Source: Alphaproteobacteria bacterium (GTDB lineage Bacteria; Pseudomonadota; Alphaproteobacteria; UBA8317). Taken from it: DNA of 64,000 nucleotides. The notes below the pieces were generated by a model. That model saw nothing but the letters and a program-made list of their open reading frames with translations. It made no database searches and had not been told where the DNA came from. The position numbers were made by a program, and so were the translations under genes. Positions 1 through 63,305 of the stretch are shown here, piece after piece (the stretch's first letter is position 1; each line of letters begins with the position of its first letter). Where the stretch lies: assembly GCA_038131935.1 (NCBI GenBank), contig JAYPQH010000018.1, positions 1 to 64,000 on the forward strand. The letters are read 5' to 3'.

Positions 1-1129
1 GTATCAGCGCCATCAACGCCAGGGTCATTATCTCCTGCACCGCCCCAAATAACGTCATTACCAGAGCCAGCAGTTATTATGTCAGCACCAAGGCCGCCAT
101 AGACTGTATTGTTGCCTTCACCTGCATCGATTACATCAGCACCAGCACCGCCATCAACATAGTCATTGCCTTCACCTGCATCGATGATGTCGGCACCACC
201 CTGGGTCCGGTCGACCATTGCTCCCCAATATTGGATACCCGTACGCGTCTCACTTGTATTGTTCTGATAATAGAACCAATCTAGCGACGACCAGCCATCT
301 CCATAGAGTCTATCATCGGACGCACCACCAGAGAGCTCATCCGCTCCGACACCTCCTATAAGAATGTCTATATTATTGCCGCCTGTGATTTTATCGTCAC
401 CAGATGCGCCAAAAAGCACATTACTATAAGAAAGACCTAATATACCATGTGCTTTACCAATATTATTCTTAAAAGTAGTTTCAGAGCGGACATCACTTAC
501 ACTCAAGGTATCGTTGCCAGCACCACCATCCGCAAAGTTTGCGCCTTCAATCCTGTCGCCACCTGAACTGCCAGTAAAGACAAGCGCTCTATCCTTAATC
601 GCAGTCTGAAGACCACTTGAAATGGTAAGATCATCGTTGCCACCACCAAGGTTATAATAACGCCCACTGCTATCGGTATACCACTGCTCATTCGCACTCA
701 GATCAAGATCATAAATGATCTTATTATTCATCACTGGGAAGCTTGGTTTGATCACGCAACATAACTCCGCTGAAAACTACGTCTGTTATCGATATCAGTT
801 AAATTCCTTCACTTCGCCGTTAATCGATGCGTCAGTTGTTATAAAAGAAATTGAGAAAGTTTTATTATAATCAGTGCTAACACTTGATCATCTGGAACGT
901 TAATGAAATTTTTTTGAATGATCGGTTCCAAGCTCATCAACTCCAAATGCAAGGGCATTTGTGATTTCACCATTGAAAAGTACACTGCTGTTTTTCTTGA
1001 TGTAAAGTTGACAACGACTGAGCTGGGAAACCCTACAGACCGAAAAATATCTCAAGCCTCGCCCTGGCCGTCTCTCTCAGAGAAATTATCCGGATAACTG
1101 ATCGCGTAAAAGTTTCGTACGATTTCCAT
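1..1129 (-). CDS. RTX/hemolysin-type Ca-binding repeat protein (runs off the left edge; 5' part frameshifted)
   Basis: Manual translation of the minus strand is open from ~778 to 1 and contains repeated GGxGxDxI nonapeptides (GGAGNDTL, GASGDDKI, GGVGADEL, DAGEGNDYV, DGGAGADVI, YGGLGADII, AGSGNDVI). The ATG at 1129 is only a candidate start. Confidence 0.8.
112..185. repeat. 20-bp direct repeat within the RTX coding repeats
   Basis: ttgccttcacctgcatcgat occurs at 112-131 and 166-185, 54 nt apart (two nonapeptides). Confidence 0.8.
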
Positions 1130-1604
1130 AAAAGAGCCTATTTATAGATAAAAGTGGATTAAAATATAGTCTTGAAATAACTTTAAATGCAAGTTTTTGT
1201 TTTCCATTCAGACGAATAAATCTTTAAAACAGTCATCTTACATATTTCATATAATTTTTACGTTTTTCATAAACTTAACCTGTAAGAATATTCAAAGCAT
1301 CCATAATGAGGGTAACGGCCAACAGAAGTTTTGTATTAAAACTGATTGTTTGATATCACCTTCAAGCACAATTTTTGTGAGAATTTGGCAATTTCCTAAA
1401 TCTGTTTGAATAAACTCACATCAATTTAAGCTATCTCTCTAAAACTTTTAAAAATTTTTTCCTTAACAAATTTACATATTATATAAAATATATATAGATC
1501 ATATATCCTTGTTTTAAACGGTTATTGCTCCACGATAATCCAATCTTACCTTTTGATTATCTACAAAGCGATTCATACTGTCAGGTTTTTTCCTTGAGGA
1601 TAGA

Positions 1605-2850
1605 ATGAGTATCTCCACTAAATTTGAGCAGAAAGGGGTAGAGGATATCGTTCCTGACAACTTACAAGCCCGCCGCAACAGGTAAAACAAATAGAGAAAG
1701 CACTAATGTCTTTTGCACGACAGGGCATCAAAGCCCTTGTGATTGACGAACATGATAGGACGCTGATGGGTATTTACGCTATCATTGTGCTGTAGATCTT
1801 AAATATACAGAACTGCCCGTTGTCGTTGTATCAGATCTATCAGAACAACAACGTATTGAACTCAGTTTAAGCCTTAACAGACTTCCACAGGATACCGTCT
1901 GGGATCAGGCAGCCCTCAAAATTCAATTCGAGACCTCTTTGAAGTTGATCTATCATTCATCGGCTTTGAGGTTGCAGAGCTGACGCAGCATTAAGCTTTG
2001 TGTTGTTATTGAATGATCCTGATGATATTTGTACATTACCCACAGAGCTGATCAGGCCAAGTTGGCGACATCATAAAGGTGGGAAACCACTATTTGATCT
2101 GTGGTAATGCCCTTGAATTGTCTTCTTTGTTCCTAAGAATTAAATGCTGATGCACCCTCCTTGGGTGGTAAATAGACCACCATACAATGTGTCTGTAAAA
2201 CGCCATGTTCAGGTTCATGGTCACCATGAAGAGTTCAGCATGGCCAGTGGTGAGATGGATGATGCCACTTTTTGTGCGTTTTTGGAGGACTTTTTACAGA
2301 TCGCCAAAACCATCTCAACATCTGATGCATTGTTCTACGTATTCATGGATTGGCGCCATTACCCCCTTCGATCAAGCTGCAAAGGATGCTGGCTTTATCT
2401 CCGTCGCATCTGGTGTGTATAATCGCAGCAACGCTGCATGGGTTCTTTTATCGATCCAACATGAACTCGTGGGTGTGTATAGTGCATCTGAGCGTTATCA
2501 GAACAACATCAAATTAGGTACACATGGACGCTATAGGGACCAATGTCTGGCAATTATCCTGTTAAGTTAGTTTTGACCAACGCGCACTCAAGACTTAGCT
2601 GACCATCCGCTAAAGCCCAAAGCACGATCGGATATTTATCAAAGATTGTACATCCATTGAGATGTTGTTCTGATCCGTTTCGAAGTGGCACAACGCTTCC
2701 TCGCCTGTCAGGCAACTAAGCGACAAGGTATCGGGGTTGAACTGGATCCTTGTTACGTGGATGCCGCTCACGGCGCCCATATACTCCACCTAACGGATGG
2801 AGTCCAACAGAGCACAGGTTCCACATATTCAAATTTATTAAAGGAGAGCT
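1605..2850 (+). CDS. ParB-like N-terminal domain fused to an N6/N4 DNA methyltransferase (beta class); multiply frameshifted as given
   Basis: GAGGA RBS and ATG at 1605. Fragments include ELPVVVVSDLSEQQ...NRLPQDTVWD (ParB-MTase type), gac-cac-cat-ac at 2175 (D/PPYNV, motif IV, with one C missing), EFSMASGEM, YVFMDWRH, NNIKLGTHGRYR, and DVVL/DPF/SGTTL...GIGVELDPCYVD (motif I) at 2661-2762. The end is approximate. Confidence 0.8.
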
Positions 2851-2853
2851 CGC

Positions 2854-3233
2854 ATGGCTGACAACGATGCAGGCTACAGAAAGCCACCAAAACACACACA
2901 ATTCAAAAAAGGCCAATCAGGAAACCCCAAAGGTCGTCCACGTAAAGGCAAGAGCCCAATAGGACAGGATTCGCCGTATCTTCTGATGAACCAATAATAA
3001 TCTATGAGGACGGTAAAGCCAAAACCGTGACCAAAGGTGAAGCCATGATAAGACGCCTTGTGGCTGATTCCATTAACGGAAAGATCGGCGCTCAAAAGTT
3101 GGCCAAGGAATTCTATTTAACTGTCAACAAAAAGGAGCCTGGGGAAGCTCATTCGCCTCAAGAACAAGAAGAATTTGATAAATTATTAGTCGCCGCGATG
3201 AACGCTCATGAACCAGCTAAGCCCTGGTTTTAA
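2854..3233 (+). CDS. DUF5681-family protein (frameshifted near 2970-3000)
   Basis: AAGGAG RBS at 2841. ATG 2854 reads MADNDAGYRKPPKHTQFKKGQSGNPKGRPRK (FKKGQSGNPKGRP signature) and continues as EDGKAKTVTKGEAMIRRLV. Confidence 0.8.
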
Positions 3234-4608
3234 AAAGCTTTTAAGAATCCATCCAGCTACTGGTTTTGATGTTTATAGGGAAAATCATCTTTGGTGAGAA
3301 CGATGTGAATTGCATCATTCGGCCATTACATGCTTAAAGATGTCTATGAAGGTCGATTGCAAGGTTGATCATCAACGCGCCACCAAGAAGCTTTAAAACA
3401 GCTACCACTACCATTAGTTACCAGCATGGTTGTTAGGTAAAAACCTTCCACCAAAATCATCATCGTGGGCTACTCCTTAGACATCGCACACAAATGGGAC
3501 GATGAGATTAGAACCATCATGAACCATGACTTTTACAAGGAGCTGTTTCCATACTGTTCTTTCCAATCGTAACGTTCCAAAGGTAAAATCACCACCACAG
3601 CTGGTGGCCCAATAAGATGCACATCCTTTGAATCGACACTTACAGGTCTAGAGGAGACTATATCGTCATCGATGACCCTATCAAAGCAGGAGCAACGGCT
3701 TCTCACAGTATAAGAGAAAAAGCGAACGAGGATTTTGCCAGGGTTGTTAGTACAAGACCGAATGACCCCACCAAAGGTGCTATCATCCTGTGCATGCAGC
3801 GTTTGCATGTAGAGGACCTTACAGGCTTTCTCCTAAGCAAACCTGAGACGAATTGGAAGCAACTTTCCTTACCTGCAAAGTTTGCAGAAGATGCCAGTTA
3901 TCGACTTGTTGATGGCCATGTTCATCACGCAAAAGGCAGAGACCTTCTCCATGAAGAACGTCTTCCTCAAAAAAACATCTAATAGAACAGGAAATCATGA
4001 TGGACAAGCCTCCTTTAGTGCTCAGTACCTTCAGACACCAATCTTAGAGGAGAATAATGGGTTAAACAGAGATCACTTTGGCTGGTATAATCCAAATGAA
4101 ATTGATTTAACCGGGGCAAGGGTCGTGCATTGTTGGGATACTGCTGTCACCGCAAAAGAAACCAATGATTTACAGCCTTTCTTGCAATAGCGCAAGGATG
4201 ACAGGTTTTATATTACAGACATAGATCGTTTTAAAAATGAACGCTGCAGACTTGCCACCAATAATTGTTGACCGCGCCAACTTAGATAAACCACAACAAC
4301 TGTTAATCGAGCGTGCCCCTCATGCCGAGTATGTCATTGAAGAAGTGAGGAAACAGATAAATGGTGACACCCGTCTCATTTCTTACGAGCCCAAAAACAG
4401 TTCCAAACAAGAACGCCTTGATAGGGCAACCCCTCGCATACAGAACAAACGCGTCTTTCTACCAGAAACCCACAAACTCAAAGATATATTTTTAGAAGAA
4501 GTTATGTCCTTCCCCAAAGGTCATTACGATGATCTTGTAGATTGCCTCACCATGGGGATTAATTACCTGGCTGAGTCGAGTGGTATTGCCATTTATAAGA
4601 TTAGTTAA
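3208..4608 (+). CDS. Phage terminase large subunit (ATPase plus RNase H-like nuclease); multiply frameshifted
   Basis: Walker A-like RLIINAPPRSFKT (3362-3400), Walker B IVIDDPIK (3662-3685), MQRLHVEDL, FSAQYLQTP, and nuclease acidic motifs CWDTA, LLIE, FPKGHYDDLVD. Confidence 0.85.
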
Positions 4609-4675
4609 TCTCTACTTGTCTTCCACACGAAAGGAAGCATGCATGGTCCTCAACTTAACATAAGGAGAGGACGAT

Positions 4676-5059
4676 ATGGCCGGAAAAACCAGTGATGAAC
4701 GCATAAAGCTAGGGGTGGAATGGGAGACCATGTCAATATCCCGCCCCATACAAATCGAGCGTGCAGCTTTATAGAACTGTGTTTGCGGATAGAGAAACAA
4801 TGAAGAGTCAAAGGTTCCATGTCAGCTGCCAAACTTGCCTCAAGACTTGCAAGAAAAAAATACGCAAAAGCGAACAACATTCAAGTTAGAGTTACCTCTG
4901 GCACAGAGATTTGCAGGCCATGGAACGGTCAGAGAGATTAAAGTCCAAGTCTGTGAAGATGGCTTTTATTGTGAAGGAAAGGTTTATCCATCATTAAGTG
5001 CTCTCGCCTCATCAGTTACCGGCACCAAAAGATCAGGTCCTGTCTTTTTGGGCTTATAA
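4676..5059 (+). CDS. DUF2924-family protein (frameshifted)
   Basis: [22 protein letters not shown] (4900-4929) and [33 protein letters not shown] match the DUF2924 pattern. The stop overlaps the recombinase start (TAATG). Confidence 0.75.
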
Positions 5060-6598
5060 TGAGGGCAGCTATTTATACCCGCAAGAGCACCGAAGATGGT
5101 TTGGAACAGGACTTCAACAGCCTGGATGCACAAAGAGAGGCGTGTGCTGCTTATATCCAATCACAACGCCATGAAGGCTGGACTAAGCTTGAGCGATATG
5201 AGGATGGAGGTTGGTCAAGGAGGCAACCTTTAAGCGGCCAGGTCTTCAAAGCCTACTTACAGATATCTCAAAAGGTCTTATTGATGTGGTGGTGGTTTAC
5301 AAGATTGATCGATTAACAAGAAGTTTGTCAGACTTTGCAAAGTTGGTAGACGTCTTCGATCAACAAAAGGTTACCTTTGTCTCTGTCACACAACAGTTCA
5401 ACACAACATCATCCATGGGGCGGCTAACACTTAACGTGCTATTATCTTTGCCCAATATGAGAGATTACTACAGAGCGGTTAAAAGATAAGATTGCAGCCT
5501 CTAAGACCCGTGGCATGTTCATGGGGGGAACCGTTCCTCTTGGGTATAAAACTGAAAATGGAAAGCTTCTTATCGATGAAGAAGGAGCAAACATCATCCA
5601 CCATGTATTTGAATACTACAAAGACCTCAGGAACGGCTATGAGGTCATGAAGAAGTTACGTGCCACAGGCATGAAGAGACCCTCCTATGTGAGCAAGAAA
5701 GGAACACGGAGGGCCGCAAACTATCTAAGCACGGGTACAATCTACAAAATACTTTCCAACCCCATCTATATCGGCAAGGTTCGGCATCATGGAAAGGAGC
5801 ATAAAGGTCAACATCAGACCATTATCTCAAAGGCACTTTGGAATGATGTCCAATCCATACTTAAAGATCAGAGTAGAAGGCCAAGAGGGAGACAGTCTAA
5901 ACATCAACATCTGTTTTTACCCTTGCAGGGAAACTCTTCTCCTCTACAGGATGCCCTCTCACCCAGAACCAATAAAAAGAATAATATCACCTACCGTCAT
6001 TATGCCGTCTCAAGAACAAGGGTGCCCCCGCCTCATGGCGACAGAACCCATATACCAGCACCAGAGCTAGAACGGACCACCATAGAATCTGTGAAACAAT
6101 TTATCTTTACCTGCACATATCAAGAAAGCTCTCTAGAACCTGAGGCATTTGAGAAGGCCAAACACAAGCTCTTAAATGATCAGATGCATGCTCAAATCCA
6201 GAAAATTATTCTCTACAATGATCATATTCTTATCAGCCTAACGGAACCCTGCATCACATCATTGGGCTTGAAGCAAAACCCACAGATACGACAGAACATA
6301 GAGCCACAGCAGGTTGGCCAACGACATCGAGTTATCCTCACGCCTCAAAATAGTTGCAAGCCAAATGAAGAGATAATTCTGTCTGTTGCAAAAGCATGGC
6401 GTTGGTATGAACAGCTTACCACCAAGAAAGTGCACTCCGTGAAGGAACTCGCCATCAAGAAAAACAACTTCAAGTGTCATTATCAGAAATTTAAAACTAG
6501 CAGCACTCAACCCAAGTGAAGTTGAAAAGCTATTAAAAGGTCATCACCGTCCTGATCTCACACTTGAGCAGCTCAAACAAAACCTTATAGCTGACTAA
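5059..6598 (+). CDS. Large serine recombinase (resolvase, recombinase and C-terminal domains); about 3 frameshifts
   Basis: [27 protein letters not shown] (catalytic Ser), [45 protein letters not shown]. The C-terminus [17 protein letters not shown] ends at TAA 6596-6598. Confidence 0.9.
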
Positions 6599-6777
6599 TC
6601 TTACAAAAAGGAAACAAGACTGCCAAAAACCTGGTGGAGAACCCCTACCCAATCGGTCCTTTGTGGGCGCAAATATTTTAAGAAACAAGACTGGATACAA
6701 TATCACTGCAGCCAATAAACCCCCAATAAGCGGGCTTTGGTAACATTCTCTAAATAATGATGGAGACAAATGGGTTG

Positions 6778-6867
6778 TGGCGGGCAGGAAGGGATTCGAA
6801 CCCTCGAGACGGTTCCCCGTCTACTCCCTTAGCAGGGGAGCGCCTTCGACCACTCGGCCACCTGCCC
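6778..6867 (-). tRNA. tRNA-Ser(GCT)
   Basis: GGGCAGGTGGCCGAGTGGTCGAAGGCG-CTCCC CT GCT AA GGGAG-long variable arm-GGTTCGAATCCC-TTCCTGCCCG CCA; 90 nt with encoded CCA. Confidence 0.97.
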
Positions 6868-7102
6868 ACCCCTCGCTTACATGATCTTTCAAAGTTTATG
6901 CAAGGCACGTTGCTGCAAAACACATGCTATTTGACACTACAAACCGAGCCAAAATCAAAATCCACATAAGTTGTACAAATTTTGCACCAGATTGATGGCC
7001 CGTACCCCTTCACAAAGTCATGTCAGACATTATTGGGAACCCAATTGTCGAAACATGCGCTTGTTGAATAATAACGGAAGAGAAATCACCCTGATGGACC
7101 AC

Positions 7103-8569
7103 TTATTGTTGATCTAACTTCGTTTTCAGGATTTGGTTTACAACAGAAGGATTGGCTTTACCTTCTGTTTGCTTCATCACCTGCCCAACAAACCATCCCA
7201 TGATTTTTACCTTACCGGCTTTGTATGCTTCAACATTTTCCGGTGCCTGTGCAATCAATCCATCTATAATGCCTTCTAAAGCAGCCGTATCGGAGACCTG
7301 CGCAAGGCCTTGTGTTTCAACAATTTGGCGGGGATCGCCGCCTTTTGTCCACATCACATCAAAGACCTGCTTGGCAATTTTTCCTGAAATCAGGCCCTCT
7401 TCAATCAATAAAATCAAATCCGCCAGCTGCTGCGCGCTCACAGGACTCTCATCAATATTTTTTTCTGCCTTATTCAAGGCTCCAAACAATTCACCTGTTA
7501 TCCAATTTGCAGCCATCTTTGCGGGTGCTGTTTTGATAACATCCTCAAAATAATCGGCGAACATTTTGTCTGCGCACAACACTGACGCATCATAATCACT
7601 CAAACCCAATTCTTGGACAAAACGGGCACGTTTCTGATCGGGCAACTCTGGCATTGATGCCCTGATAGCTTCAACCAATTCTTCTGAGAACACCAAAGGT
7701 GGTAGATCAGGGTCTGGGAAATACCGATAATCATGAGCGTCTTCTTTTGAGCGCATGGAGCGTGTTTCGCCTGTTACAGGATCAAACAAGCGTGTTTCTT
7801 GAACAATCTCACCACCATTTTCCAACACATCAACTTGGCGAGCAGCTTCGTAAACAATGGCTTGCTGAACAAATTTAACTGAATTTACATTTTTGATTTC
7901 ACACCGGGTTCCAAATGGCTCACCAGGACGGCGAACAGAAACATTTACATCTGCCCGCATTGATCCTTGATCCATATTTCCATCACAGGTTCCCAAATAA
8001 CGCACGATAGAACGTAATTTTGCCAAATAGGCACCAGCTTCATGTGGACTTCGCATATCAGGACGCGACACAATTTCCATCAGGGCAATTCCTGATCTGT
8101 TTAAATCGACATGTGAATTCCTAGGGTCCAAATCATGAACCGATTTACCCGCATCTTGCTCAAGATGAATACGCTCAACACCAATACGTTTTGATGAACC
8201 GTCCTCAAGCGTAATATCCACATAACCCTCGCCAACAATCGGATGGTACAACTGAGAAATCTGATACCCTTGCGGCAGGTCCGGGTAAAAATAATTCTTT
8301 CGATCAAACCGTGACCAACAATTGATTTGTGCATGAATACCCAAACCCGTTCGGATAGCCTGCTTGACACAAACCTCATTGATGACTGGAAGCATTCCCG
8401 GCATCGCTGCATCAACAAGACTTACCTGGCTGTTAGGCGGCGCTCCAAAAGCAGTAGCGGCTGAAGAAAACAACTTTGATTCTGACAATACCTGGGCATG
8501 CACCTCAAGCCCAACAACAATTTCAAAAGGTCCTGTAGCCCCTTCAACAATATAGTCTGCCTTACTCAT
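7103..8569 (-). CDS. gatB: Asp/Glu-tRNA amidotransferase subunit B
   Basis: [38 protein letters not shown]; start taken at MSKADY. Confidence 0.97.
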
Positions 8570-30029: not shown

Positions 30030-31154
30030 ATGACGCTGCCTGCCGGAATCCATGTCAAGCATGTAATTGCACCTGAGGGTATAAATCGCATTTATAGCGG
30101 TGATTGTATTGAGGTTATGAAATCAATCCCGTCTGGATCCGTTGATTTAATCTTTGCTGATCCACCCTACAATCTTCAATTGTCACACAAATTACGCCGC
30201 CCAGACCAAACAGAAGTAGCAGGTGTCCATCATGACTGGGATCAATTTGATGATTTTGATGCCTATGACTTATTCACCCATCAATGGTTATCAGAAGCGC
30301 GACGGGTGCTAAAAGATAATGGTGCAATATGGGTTATTGGCAGCTATCATAATATATACCGCCTGGGCGCCCTTCTCCAAGATGCTGGATTTTGGATCTT
30401 AAATGATGTGGTTTGGAGAAAAACAAACCCGATGCCGAATTTTCGGGGAACAAGGCTTGCCAATGCACATGAAACATTGATTTGGGCTGCCAAACAAACA
30501 ACACGCTCGGGCTATCGCTTTAATTACCGCACATTAAAGTCCCTCAATGATGGTCTACAAATGCGGTCCGACTGGGTCATGCCCATTTGTTCAGGGGATG
30601 AACGCTGCAAATTTGCCGATGGCACCACAGCCCATCCAACACAGAAACCATTGGCACTGCTGCGTCGCATCATGATGATGAGCACAGAAGAAAATGACCT
30701 GGTTCTTGATCCCTTCTTTGGAACAGGTACAACTGGGGTTGTTTGCAAACAACTTGGCCGGCACTTTATCGGTATTGAAGCAGATGATGACTATGTGGAA
30801 TTGGCCCGTGCACGCATTGCCAAAACCGATCCTTTACCAAAAGACTTAAGAAACAACGTACCAGAATTTGAACGTAATGTGAGAATTCCATTTTCTTGGC
30901 TAATAGACCATGGGCTTTTATCCATAGGAGATAAATTGTGCGATAAAACTGGAAAAAAATTGGCCATTATTTGTGCAGATGGAACCTTAAAAGCAGATAA
31001 TTCAGCGGGTTCTATCCACCAACTCGCAGCCAAAATGCAGAATTTAGATGCAGCCAATGGGTGGATTTATTGGTACTGCAAAAATGGAACCCCTATCGAT
31101 AACTTACGCAGAGAATTACGGGAATCACTGAAAAATCAAGGTATTAAGCTCTAG
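30030..31154 (+). CDS. ccrM: Cell-cycle-regulated adenine methyltransferase (GANTC)
   Basis: IFADPPYNLQL, WVIGSYHNIY, NPMPNFRG, HPTQKP, LDPFFGTGTTG, C-terminal GSIHQ...NGWIYW domain; rnhB-ccrM-mutY context. Confidence 0.93.
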   Translation: MTLPAGIHVKHVIAPEGINRIYSGDCIEVMKSIPSGSVDLIFADPPYNLQLSHKLRRPDQTEVAGVHHDWDQFDDFDAYDLFTHQWLSEARRVLKDNGAIWVIGSYHNIYRLGALLQDAGFWILNDVVWRKTNPMPNFRGTRLANAHETLIWAAKQTTRSGYRFNYRTLKSLNDGLQMRSDWVMPICSGDERCKFADGTTAHPTQKPLALLRRIMMMSTEENDLVLDPFFGTGTTGVVCKQLGRHFIGIEADDDYVELARARIAKTDPLPKDLRNNVPEFERNVRIPFSWLIDHGLLSIGDKLCDKTGKKLAIICADGTLKADNSAGSIHQLAAKMQNLDAANGWIYWYCKNGTPIDNLRRELRESLKNQGIKL

Positions 31155-61555: not shown

Positions 61556-63305
61556 CCAAGGAAAAAAGCAGCTACGGCATATTATGGCGTATTTTCCAGG
61601 AAGAGGTTTTTCGCCATCGGATACGCCTCGCTACAGCTTGGGTCGCGATGGCCATTGTCGCAGGCACCACAGCACTCACCGCTTATATGCTTGACCCTGC
61701 TATGGAGCAGATATTCTTGAAACCTAACGCACAAGCGTTGCTGGTTATTCCTCTTCTTGTGGTGGGCCTGTCTGTCATCAAAGCTGTGGCCAGTTATGTT
61801 CAAGTGGTGATGATGTCACATATTGGACAGTCCATTGTTGCGCGTCTACAATGCCGGTTAGTCAGGAAACTTCTCGCCGCAGATTTGAGTTGGATCGGGC
61901 AACGACATACAGGCACACTTATTTCCTCGTTGATTAACGATGCCCAGAAAGTTCAAGACGCTACAGCACAGGTCATGACAGCCATCATACGCGATGGATT
62001 AACCATGATAGGTTTGGTTATCGTGATGTTCTATCAAGACTGGGCACTCGCCTCAATTGGGATCTTTGTTGTGTTACCAGGCGCCATTGCAATCCAAAAA
62101 CTAGCTGGAAAAACCCGCAGCGCGGCGTCAGCAAGCATGAAGGAAACGGGAACCCTCACAGCACTGATGGATGACGCGTTGAAGGGCTTAAAGAAGTGCG
62201 GGCCTATGGCCAAGAAGATCATGAAGTGAGCAGAATTGGAAATTCCATCGAAAAAAGGCTCCGTCACGTTATGGCCACCATAAAAGCCAAGACCTTGGGC
62301 GGACCTGTTGCAGAGGCCTTGTCAGGTGCTGGTATCGCGGCTGCAATTATTTATGCAGGTTGGCGTGGCATGGAAGGGGAATTGGGACTCAACAATTTTG
62401 TTTCATTCCTGGCAGCCATGATGATGGCGTATCAACCAATGCGGGCGATTGCCAATACTTTTGCACGCCTACATGAAGGTGCTGTTGCAGCTGAACGAAT
62501 GTATGAGATCATCGATACAAAACCACAAATCAACTCACCATCTGTACCCGAGTCTGTTCATAAGCCTGTTACGGGAACCATAAGCTTCCGCCAGGCCAGT
62601 TTCAGCTATTCCGATCAAGATCCGATCTTACAAGATATCACCATTGATATGCCATCGGGAACAACAACAGCTATTGTGGGCCCATCTGGCTCAGGAAAAT
62701 CATCCCTTTTAAACCTTATACCTCGTTTTTTTGATGTGGTTTCCGGACAGGTATTGGTGGACAATATCGATGTGCGCTCATGGGATTTAACGGAGCTACG
62801 CAAGCAGATAGCCATTGTGGCTCAAAAACCATTTTTGTTTGATGACACGGTAGCGGCCAATATTGCCTATGGGCAGCCTCAGGCAAGCCATGAGGAGATC
62901 GTCAGTGCCGCTCAAAAAGCAGCTGCACATGAATTCATTATGCAATTGCCTGAGGGCTACCAAACACTTGTTGGAGAATCTGGCTCTCGTCTCTCTGGTG
63001 GTCAACAGCAAAGGATCGCGATTGCAAGGGCCATGTTAAAAGATGCACCGATTTTGTTATTGGATGAAGCCACCTCAGCTCTAGACAATGCATCCGAGCG
63101 TATTGTTCAGCATGCATTGCAAACATTGATGAGGGGACGCACCACCATTTTGATTGCGCACCGGCTTTCAACGGTTGCCCATGCTGACCAAATCCTCGTG
63201 CTCAAAGATGGAAAGTTGCACGAACAAGGAGATCATGAAAGCCTGCTGAAAAAACAAGGCATTTACGCAGAACTCTTTCGGAACGCTCATGAGAAGACAA
63301 GTTGA
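61552..63305 (+). CDS. msbA: MsbA-like lipid ABC exporter (frameshift near 62191; candidate CTG start)
   Basis: TMD plus NBD (GPSGSGKS, LSGGQQQR, LLDEATSALD). One missing A joins the two ORFs. Confidence 0.85.

Follow-up and report, generated by a model that had tools for sequence, protein, structure and literature searches.

A pseudogenised capsid-less element joining a phage packaging-initiation module to a large serine recombinase beside tRNA-Ser(GCT)

Temperate phages of the WO and Paracoccus types are among the closest described systems to the locus analysed here. In prophages of Paracoccus and other hosts, the accessible part of one account describes a 'ParB-Tls locus', in which a ParB-fused m6A/m4C methylase lies directly upstream of the terminase genes, and reports serine recombinases in 16 of these prophages (PMC6536676). 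Prophage WOVitA4 (HQ906664) has a co-oriented outer frame that runs from a methylase through a small ORF to the large terminase subunit (TerL) and closes, at the far end, with DUF2924 and a large serine recombinase (LSR). Genes from portal to baseplate lie between TerL and DUF2924, the WO morphogenesis block of ~11 kb comprising portal, protease, decoration, capsid, connector and baseplate; the methylase adjoins attL, according to the portion of the WO account consulted (PMC10299305). Among the four satellite families covered in the available part of PMC10085698, cfPICIs are the only one with its own terL. PICIs, marine VEIMEs and PICI-like tycheposons are small, integrative hijackers of helper capsids, some with serine recombinases, and gene labels in a tycheposon figure include tRNA genes; these elements encode TerS or a capsid protein, often along with a primase, helicase and regulators, with no large terminase listed in the passages available to us. 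The earlier note's view that known satellites carry TerS rather than TerL thus agrees with these passages, except for cfPICIs, which also carry capsid genes. The literature searched yielded no description of a capsid-less element pairing TerL with a serine recombinase.

At positions 1605-6598 the window, a 64-kb stretch of DNA, carries a compact phage-derived integrative element of ~5 kb, in a pseudogenised and inert copy next to a tRNA-Ser(GCT) gene. In the element, a phage packaging-initiation module (ParB-methylase, DUF5681, TerL) runs straight into an integration module (DUF2924, LSR). On the forward strand, a ParB-N / N6-N4 DNA methylase pseudogene (1605-2855, with its ATG at 1605; located by tblastn with 13 intact homologues) is followed by a DUF5681 pseudogene that occupies the small-terminase position (2854-3233) and whose PF18932 match falls in two frames (2842-2994 covering profile positions 1-22 at E 1.3e-9; 2946-3230 covering positions 25-70 at E 4.3e-6). 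The TerL pseudogene, of Terminase_6 type (3208-4608), was placed by alignment to an intact 472-aa TerL from elsewhere, P0001 (tblastn E 1.7e-135), and has a Terminase_6C match at 4225-4605. Directly 3' of the TerL stop (4608), with no recognisable gene intervening, come a DUF2924 remnant comprising the C-terminal third only (4858-5059; PF11149 profile positions 74-134, E 2.1e-12) and an LSR pseudogene (5059-6598) with a Resolvase domain split over two frames and a Recombinase domain. Pfam matches were obtained for 7 of the element's 30 ORF fragments (E 3e-4 to 3e-19), and the gene matches far exceed what chance would give.

The LSR stop at 6598 lies 179 nt from the 3' end of an intact tRNA-Ser(GCT) on the reverse strand (6778-6867; ARAGORN; Rfam RF00005, 59.4 bits), close to the ~180 bp read earlier, and the spacer between them (6599-6777) is presumably the attR site. 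The gap is likewise 179 nt in one relative (L001); comparison of the two spacers gave no convincing similarity, and a search of the window spacer for inverted repeats found none. To the left, where the end of the element is undefined, an AT-rich stretch (756-1604; GC 0.30 at 1001-1500 vs 0.41-0.50 around) contains no ORF of at least 80 aa and no tRNA-derived repeat (best matches 9 nt, E 1.5). Beyond it is the RTX gene that had been recognised upstream (ORF at 3-755, reverse strand; HemolysinCabind, E 8e-23). That no portal or capsid genes follow TerL was borne out by a Pfam scan of the window ORFs: the 51 long ORFs outside the element and an ETF-ubiquinone oxidoreductase included no portal, capsid or tail gene, being housekeeping genes or without a Pfam match. 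A gene transfer agent would have a head-tail structural cluster and no integrase, which the lack of structural genes in 64 kb and the presence of the LSR do not match.

Like phages of the WO/Paracoccus type, the locus has the ParB-methylase and terminase at one end and DUF2924-LSR at the other, but it lacks their morphogenesis, lysis and replication modules, and regulatory genes were not found in it either. Since WOVitA4 shows the same outer frame around a central morphogenesis block, the element corresponds to the WO frame minus that block. The two differ in detail: WO TerL is of the lambda gpA type (GpA_ATPase, GpA_nuclease) rather than Terminase_6, the WO small ORF is not DUF5681 by Pfam, and the LSR catalytic domain of WO is 49-53% identical, against 66-77% among the capsid-less loci. 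Similarly, the ParB-Tls prophages tabulated in the part of the source available are full prophages of 38-54 kb, whereas the window has the packaging module and recombinase alone (PMC6536676). The element resembles cfPICIs, which are helper-dependent, in being integrative with its own terL, but has none of the capsid, head-tail adaptor and connector genes that they encode in the account consulted. As regards tycheposons, the window has an LSR and tRNA adjacency and no replication genes. With satellites in general it shares a site-specific integrase (the LSR) and the lack of a full structural gene set. PICI, cfPICI, P4-like and PLE satellites typically have their own replication module (primase-replicase) and regulator. 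These are missing from three relatives (L001, L002, L008), in which no ORF from methylase to LSR had a replication or regulator match (Pfam, PHROGs).

Frameshift-aware alignment of the five window genes required 34 or more frameshifts and a single stop over ~5 kb. TerL has 14 frameshifts and no in-frame stop, at 92.6% identity to P0001 (458 columns, residues 1-472). The methylase has 12 frameshifts and the stop; its tblastn alignment moves between frames 1, 3, 2 and 3, none of its 12 fragments matched Pfam, so that it was recognised through tblastn with intact homologues, and in the frameshift-aware alignment it is 47% identical to L005 and L001. DUF5681 has one frameshift and the LSR six (51% identity to the L001 LSR, residues 1-513). 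In DUF2924, with at least one frameshift, only residues ~76-141 of the homologues were matched (tblastn, frameshift-aware alignment); its N-terminal two-thirds are beyond recognition, and 4609-4857 holds no recognisable sequence. The sole ORF longer than 130 aa in 1605-6598 is the C-terminal part of the LSR (5515-6519), and ORFs of 150 aa or more cover 0.00 of 1-4000, 0.48 of 4001-8000 and 0.74-0.98 of the other 14 bins.

The breaks are almost all indels, a pattern that long-read errors can give, and the genes could in principle be intact, with the frameshifts arising in sequencing or assembly. We find this scarcely credible: of the 14 TerL break sites, just 3 lie next to a run of at least five identical bases, the element is poorer in homopolymers of at least six than the rest of the window (0.8 vs 1.32 per kb), and the loss in DUF2924 goes further than a shift of frame. 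Breaks also occur only in the first 6.6 kb, the remaining 57 kb being intact housekeeping DNA with normal long ORFs. With five genes pseudogenised beside 57 kb of intact DNA, the window copy is inert. The five-gene set described earlier therefore stands as co-oriented homologous gene bodies, with their order and coordinates, but not as five intact genes; being dead, this copy supplies no packaging motor of its own, contrary to one earlier suggestion. In this it resembles a cryptic or defective prophage remnant, its phage-homologous genes all disabled by mutation and no function expected of them.

Outside the window, scanning genomes with two peptide motifs, a choice that biases the sampling, gave 11 loci; L012, L014, L019, L020 and L021 were added from annotated replicons and phages, and neighbourhoods covered about 10 kb either side of each TerL. 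Portal and capsid genes are absent, on the basis of Pfam (123 ORFs) and PHROGs (54 ORFs), from 13 of only 15 informative loci with a same-family TerL and readable downstream DNA (window included; four show just 1.0-1.7 kb beyond TerL). The exceptions, with such a gene after TerL, are L019 and L021. The capsid-less layout recurs in distant bacteria, the earlier note having said that this gene set recurs in alphaproteobacterial islands, and its genes are under purifying selection in closely related copies (dN/dS: TerL, 0.10-0.16; methylase, 0.11-0.23; DUF5681, 0.22-0.38).

Within the proposed five-gene order, the part that does not vary is the methylase-DUF5681-TerL trio. DUF2924-LSR is linked to it in 7 of 11 assessable loci (window, L001, L002, L006, L008, L010, L014), with a tRNA just beyond the LSR in the window, L001 and L002 (576 nt in the last). 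In four loci (L007, L009, L012, L020) the trio, whole or in part, occurs with no DUF2924-LSR within at least 9 kb. The interval between TerL and DUF2924 can hold other genes (a sulfatase, a 394-aa ORF, DUF3489). In L005, L006 and L007 the methylase has housekeeping genes immediately upstream, and similarity between L004 and L006 ends exactly at the TerL stop codon. L014, from a phage-labelled dataset, is a 5.4-kb scaffold of exactly the five genes deposited as 'Bacteriophage sp.', with the LSR pair inverted; no terminal overlap was found in it.

Hosts are mostly Alphaproteobacteria (Rhodobacteraceae, Caulobacterales, Sphingomonadaceae, Hyphomicrobiales), in which GTAs encoded at several loci are known. 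This distribution could indicate that the module belongs to a dispersed prophage or GTA-like system with head and tail genes elsewhere in the genome, and so is not truly capsid-less. We regard that as quite improbable, given that the 123 ORFs lying within about 6-7 kb of TerL at 11 loci include no structural gene, that the 64-kb window has none either, and that the linkage to an LSR and tRNA points to a self-contained mobile unit.

The window copy could instead be debris made in place: a full WO-/Paracoccus-type LSR prophage at tRNA-Ser would have lost its TerL-DUF2924 interior, its ends now decaying, and likeness to other loci would reflect prophage ends being lost last. In WOVitA4, and in the part of the WO source available, the methylase-TerL and DUF2924-LSR blocks are indeed two ends of one co-oriented prophage (PMC10299305); every window gene is a pseudogene, relatives are damaged too (an in-frame stop in L005, frameshifts and a truncated LSR in L006, a broken TerL in L020), and two family members have a portal after TerL. 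Yet independent deletions would be expected to leave behind pieces of portal or capsid genes, and none were found, in the window or in the other capsid-less loci that make up most of the informative set. For three genes, the loci nearest to the window are capsid-less too, no deposited phage exceeds 32% (TerL) or 40% (methylase) identity to the family, and purifying selection on TerL in capsid-less copies does not fit debris. Unlike random remnants, the reduced gene set recurs in distant hosts under such selection. We therefore consider this origin rather unlikely. The earlier idea of a coherent minimal element, not random debris, holds at the level of the family; the copy in the window is dead.

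Phylogeny also bears on this origin. In TerL, methylase and recombinase alike the window element falls with other capsid-less copies, L001 and its clade being closest to its methylase, to its LSR and to the relative of its TerL. In a TerL tree of 59 rows, 41 of them of unknown context, a 16-row clade (SH-aLRT 95) holds 8 of the 11 capsid-less TerLs; the capsid-less/phage label changes once (0 of 500 shuffles were as low), on a branch with support of only 59. By these patterns, the window copy probably descends from an already capsid-less lineage rather than having arisen locally by deletion in a full prophage. The family, whose TerL relatives number ~1,100, forms the separate clade asked about earlier only in part: it stands apart from 5 of the 7 genuine phage TerLs tested, but Roseobacter phage CRP-902 and a Megaera plasmid, with a portal-type gene adjoining TerL, fall inside it, and it is therefore not exclusively capsid-less.

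Candidates for redirecting packaging are TerL and the DUF5681 protein in the TerS slot, which phage relatives fill with GP3_package, Sf6-type or Terminase_2 proteins. The predicted DUF5681 fold (pLDDT 83) had no match at E <= 0.001 among solved or viral small-terminase structures. A predicted DUF5681-TerL contact scored 0.57 against 0.00 for the best control, with agreement between runs of at least 28% of contacts and partner pLDDT of at least 58. Of 157 solved complexes, 116 attained the contact mark, as did 2 of 215 mismatched pairs; among those passing, scores of 0.60 or below came from only 18 of the 157 solved complexes but from both mismatches. The model thus weakly suggests that the two proteins may touch.

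In L008 and L010, TerL is ATPase-only and ends in a conserved tail that is not a nuclease (52% identity over 366 aa), an arrangement at odds with classical cut-and-package. The main rival reading is that the trio has been repurposed for a capsid-independent role, the LSR being only a vehicle. It could, for example, act in RM-like or phage-interference defence, the methylase marking self DNA and the TerL translocase-nuclease attacking incoming or replicating phage DNA. The trios that remain intact with no LSR nearby (L007, L012), selection in the absence of structural genes and the maintenance of the new tail would all suit such a role, as would neighbouring genes: UzuA upstream (PADLOC), PD-T4-3 downstream, an MmeI-type RM enzyme and AAA_13 in L008, an upstream UzuA-like GIY-YIG/phrog_26160 protein in L010, AIPR and a C5-methylase in L001, and a RelA/SpoT-like gene in L007. 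Defence cargo is common in satellites and islands, however, so these neighbours do not discriminate. Compared with the known anti-phage systems of PADLOC-DB v2, TerL, DUF5681, DUF2924 and LSR match no model, and within the module only the methylase does, as a generic MTase_II; the only matches among 22 proteins were three such methylases and the L008 UzuA and PD-T4-3. ParB-methylase plus terminase is also a standard phage packaging arrangement in the part of the ParB-Tls account consulted (PMC6536676). On balance we think repurposing somewhat unlikely.

We give the overall explanation offered here a probability of roughly 0.6. The leading reading of the intact copies, that they are helper-dependent 'hitcher' elements with self-packaging, is tentative, its odds a little short of even. 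The recombinase, with DUF2924 as a DNA-binding accessory, would excise and integrate the element at a tRNA gene; DUF5681 and TerL would recognise the element's own DNA and pump it into procapsids of a co-resident phage or GTA-like particle, while the ParB-methylase would modify that DNA during packaging. Loading into helper or GTA heads is a step at which we can only guess. Several observations weigh against helper-dependent packaging: the unit lacks replication, regulator and excisionase genes, neither an excised circle nor an encapsidated form was observed, the L014 scaffold ends without overlap, and an ordinary phage head cannot be filled by a 5-kb monomer. The loci without an LSR, the ATPase-only TerLs and the DUF5681 fold count against it as well. 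In the window's host, the element would have lost its function and now be decaying by small indels. The copy in the window is non-functional, and its intact relatives are kept working by selection.

The element in the window comprises homologues of five co-oriented genes on the + strand: a ParB-fused N6/N4 DNA methylase (1605-2855), a DUF5681 protein (2854-3233), a Terminase_6-type large terminase (TerL; 3208-4608), a DUF2924 protein (recognisable only at 4858-5059) and a large serine recombinase (LSR; 5059-6598). A 179-nt spacer separates the LSR from a tRNA-Ser(gct) on the - strand (6778-6867). The earlier note had the coordinates and gene order right, and its five homologues are real and correctly placed, but all five are broken and are pseudogenes; the only ORF longer than 130 aa in 1605-6598 is the C-terminal part of the LSR. 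Frameshift-aware protein-to-DNA alignment matched the window TerL to an intact TerL (P0001, 472 aa, from a public read-assembly) at 92.6% identity across all 472 residues, crossing 14 frameshifts. The methylase has 12 frameshifts and one stop, the LSR six frameshifts, DUF5681 one and DUF2924 at least one, with the N-terminal two-thirds of the last beyond recognition. Sequencing noise was rejected as the cause, since a homopolymer of at least five bases adjoins just 3 of the 14 TerL break sites and long-ORF coverage is a normal 0.74-0.98 across the window apart from its two leftmost 4-kb bins (0.00 and 0.48); long homopolymers are also fewer per kb in the element than in the rest of the window. 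Judged from its sequence, the window copy is inert and dead, a fossil.

To the left of the element is an RTX-repeat gene truncated at the edge of the window, and gatB, gatA, ruvX and pyrB lie to the right of the tRNA-Ser. The rest of the 64 kb is housekeeping (topA, RNase R, a CcrM-type methylase, SMC, ATP synthase F0, the cox operon and ubi genes), and a scan of the ORFs found no phage structural genes in the 64-kb window. The ~850 bp between the RTX gene and the methylase (756-1604) holds no ORFs, is AT-rich (GC 0.30 at 1001-1500) and might be either the left arm of the element or more decayed DNA. Far from the element, an ABC exporter at 61648-63305 appears to be divided between two overlapping ORFs (193 aa, ABC_membrane; 369 aa, ABC_tran) and is possibly a frameshifted gene outside it. 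The host belongs to the Alphaproteobacteria and is poorly sampled: two proteins match its ETF-ubiquinone oxidoreductase at 99% and 83% identity, and those of Aestuariivirgaceae and other Hyphomicrobiales at ~72%.

TerL relatives number 1,098 at E ≤ 0.001, and a genome scan with a five-sequence TerL alignment (P0001 and four relatives) as query yielded 11 loci with TerL 30-39% identical (loci are L-numbered here). Annotated collections added L012 (a Sphingobium megaplasmid), L014 (a 5.4-kb phage-labelled scaffold), L019 (a Megaera plasmid), L020 (standing for four near-identical Sphingobium megaplasmids) and L021 (Roseobacter phage CRP-902). Around TerL, 123 ORFs were annotated by Pfam, the 54 unexplained ones by PHROGs, and gaps by tblastn and Pfam. 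Thirteen of the 15 loci readable beyond TerL, the window counted, have no portal or capsid gene, with visible DNA beyond TerL of just 1.0-1.7 kb in four of the 13; a portal-type gene directly follows TerL only in L019 and L021. The order ParB-methylase, DUF5681, TerL is found in all capsid-less loci but L009, which is without the methylase. DUF2924 followed by the LSR is linked to TerL in 7 of 11 assessable loci: directly after it in the window, L008 and L010, separated from it by one or two unrelated ORFs in L001 and L002 and by a sulfatase gene in L006, and on the other side, inverted, in L014. No LSR was found within at least 9 kb in L007, L009, L012 and L020, while the contigs of L003, L004, L005 and L011 end too soon for linkage to be assessed.

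Several loci depart from this arrangement in detail. The L014 scaffold (MT839917.1, 1-5365), deposited as 'Bacteriophage sp.', contains exactly the five genes, with the inverted DUF2924-LSR pair upstream of the methylase and TerL running off the end at approximately full length; it has no terminal repeat of ≥10 nt that would indicate circularity. The sulfatase gene, on the opposite strand between TerL and a DUF2924-LSR remnant (L005:11363-12874, L006:11315-12826), is 89% identical in DNA between two genomes whose upstream flanks differ, and resembles cargo occupying a variable position downstream of TerL. In Microvirga vignae, the DUF5681 C-terminal part and TerL form one 595-aa ORF (L009:9650-11434) with no methylase upstream, which may be a recent fusion or indel; its close relative P0107 has 490 aa. 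A weak LSR-like match in L020 (5504-6358; 23% identity, E 2e-5, no Pfam match) shares the methylase's strand and lies upstream of it, possibly as what is left of an LSR in a circularly permuted arrangement, LSR before methylase.

An opposite-strand tRNA lies beyond the LSR at 179 nt in the window, 179 nt in L001 (tRNA-Arg) and 576 nt in L002 (tRNA-Ser-CGA). Searches for att direct repeats in the window, L001, L002 and L007 returned chance-level matches only, and so did a sensitive scan for part of the tRNA to the left of the window methylase; the best match was 16 nt (E 0.12), and the left end was not located. The 179-nt spacers of the window and L001 gave no convincing alignment, and the window's contains no inverted repeats. 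GGGTTG (+ strand) stands just outside the tRNA 3' end both in the window (6772-6777) and at approximately L001:14948-14953 despite the different tRNAs (Ser and Arg), though six bases are too short to judge. Ordinary chromosomal genes adjoin the methylase upstream in L005, L006 and L007. In the last of these (L007:7181-20233, Sphingomonas colocasiae) a tRNA-Ser(GCT), the tRNA species also seen in the window but here on the methylase side, has its 3' end 560 bp away from the methylase, DUF5681 and TerL trio, and the island also holds an NA37 nucleoid protein, a RelA/SpoT-like gene and a distal tyrosine integrase.

Selection maintains the genes of the capsid-less element, and they travel as a group. 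Four Rhodobacteraceae copies (L004, L005, L006 and L011) have 86-90% DNA identity from a point ~100-150 nt before the methylase onwards; in the L004-L006 pair the similarity ends exactly at the TerL stop codon, beyond which the loci differ. By the Nei-Gojobori method, pairwise dN/dS ranges over 0.10-0.16 in TerL, 0.11-0.23 in the methylase and 0.22-0.38 in DUF5681 (dS 0.29-0.94). L001 and its clade are nearest to the window's TerL relative, methylase and LSR (39%, 47% and 51% identity), and L001-L006 is the closest pair for TerL, methylase and recombinase alike. Swapping of the LSR module between lineages was considered and rejected, its N-terminal domains being uniformly 66-77% identical (L001, L002, L006, L008, L010).

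A 59-row IQ-TREE tree places all 11 capsid-less TerLs in a 54-row clade (SH-aLRT 98) with five genuine phage TerLs outside, and 8 of the 11 within a 16-row clade (support 95). The capsid-less and phage labels need only one change on this tree, a number that none of 500 shuffles matched, although the branch that parts them has a support of only 59 and 41 rows are of unknown context. The CRP-902 and Megaera TerLs fall inside the family, and a 135-row FastTree tree scatters the capsid-less loci through it. Among deposited phages, L014 aside, no TerL is >32% and no methylase >40% identical to the family. A Methylobacterium plasmid (L017) was rejected as the parent phage, as it has no ParB-methylase or DUF5681 among its upstream ORFs and its TerL lies outside the family. 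The earlier note's view of a coherent element rather than random debris is partly supported: the element is coherent and recurrent, with a TerL under purifying selection, but its mechanism is a proposal and the window copy is dead. Of the other points that the note suggested testing, the five-gene order without structural genes holds in 13 of 15 loci as to portal and capsid genes and in 7 of 11 as to DUF2924-LSR linkage, and the TerL family leaves out five phage TerLs but includes the two with a portal-type gene.

What the element amounts to is a known type of temperate phage reduced to its outer frame, with nothing of the middle left. The Wolbachia phage WOVitA4 reads, with all genes co-oriented, ParB-methylase, small ORF, ankyrin, TerL (lambda gpA type), gpW, lysozyme, portal, protease, decoration protein, capsid, connector and baseplate genes, ankyrins, DUF2924 and LSR. 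The WO methylase adjoins attL and a recombinase comes just after a DUF2924 gene (available portions of PMC10299305). In the (pro)phages of Paracoccus, the largest subgroup of methylases is the ParB-fused one upstream of terminase genes, and serine recombinases are used by 16 of these (pro)phages (available portions of PMC6536676). The unusual point is the recurrence and conservation of the reduced form, and we rate the family as phage-derived, integrative and satellite-like, with the window's instance a fossil member.

Because the gene content covers integration and packaging initiation and nothing else, our leading model, to which we assign a probability of roughly 0.4, is that intact copies are helper-dependent elements packaging their own DNA into the heads of another phage or a GTA. 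The LSR would excise and integrate the element, DUF5681 and TerL would fill foreign procapsids with its DNA, and the methylase would modify that DNA during packaging. Indirect support comes from DUF5681, which is invariably found in the small-terminase slot, overlapping TerL, and from the L004 DUF5681-TerL co-fold, which weakly supports pairing at 0.57 versus 0.00 for the best control, passes at ≤0.60 comprising just 18 of 157 solved complexes and both mismatches that passed. The model is weakened by the absence of replication and regulatory genes, by the fact that no sign of a circle or particle was encountered, by a 5-kb length far below a normal headful, and by known small-terminase (TerS) families filling the DUF5681 slot in phage relatives. 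It is further weakened by the fold of DUF5681 (pLDDT 83; disordered basic N-terminus, helix, beta-hairpin, helix, long helix), which matches no known TerS: a profile search gave 0 matches to PDB sequences at E ≤ 1, the model gave 0 fold matches in PDB/BFVD at E ≤ 0.001, and the best viral fold matches were other DUF5681 proteins. For DUF2924, the PDB offered one chance sequence match (E 0.31), and the AlphaFold model was poor (pLDDT 60, from 3 sequences) with 0 fold matches at E ≤ 0.001; SH2-like top matches were set aside because their probability was ≤0.38. DUF2924 partly matches the RAMA DNA-binding domain, according to available portions of PMC11342252, and the window's CcrM-type N6/N4 methylase (30030-31154) has a C-terminal RAMA domain.

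The TerLs of the divergent loci L008 (9941-11074) and L010 (9986-11131) are without the nuclease domain, carry a conserved ~70-aa tail in its place, and are 52% identical over 366 aa; a GIY-YIG (UzuA-like) gene lies upstream of the methylase in both. That such an ATPase-only TerL with a conserved replacement tail is kept also counts against helper-dependent packaging. Alternatively, the genes may form a repurposed, possibly defensive system, our main rival explanation, which we consider unlikely: the trio is intact without an LSR in L007 and L012, and defence genes surround L008 (UzuA, PD-T4-3, an MmeI-type enzyme, AAA_13) and occur in L010 (the UzuA-like GIY-YIG protein) and L001 (AIPR), but a PADLOC scan gave no match for TerL, DUF5681, DUF2924 or the LSR.

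More broadly, and tentatively, the trio, usually on a DUF2924-LSR cassette, could be a free-standing functional system across Alphaproteobacteria, selected without capsid genes. Such a system would be the first element of satellite type to have a complete terminase but no capsid, parasitising helper or GTA heads, or else a terminase-derived form of phage interference, with the nuclease-less TerL of L008 and L010 a further derived form. As described in the portions of the literature available, known phage satellites redirect helper packaging through small-terminase or capsid-remodelling genes, and marine VEIMEs and tycheposons encode a small terminase or a capsid protein. As the earlier note stated, such elements typically carry TerS or capsid genes rather than TerL, save for capsid-forming PICIs, the only one of four SatelliteFinder families with terL, which they carry together with capsid and connector genes (available portions of PMC10085698). 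A literature search returned no description of a capsid-less TerL and LSR element, though supplementary gene tables (e.g. PMC9618062) may list marine large terminases.

For the window's genome, the locus is best annotated as five pseudogenes. For the family, a widespread element that has no capsid yet retains, under selection, a complete terminase together with a recombinase and a methylase linked to packaging would, if confirmed, represent a different strategy of horizontal transfer; a repurposed terminase would instead mean that a packaging motor had been put to a new use. DUF5681 (21,060 cluster representatives at E ≤ 0.001) and DUF2924, two very large families of unknown function, would also become accessible to experiment through it.
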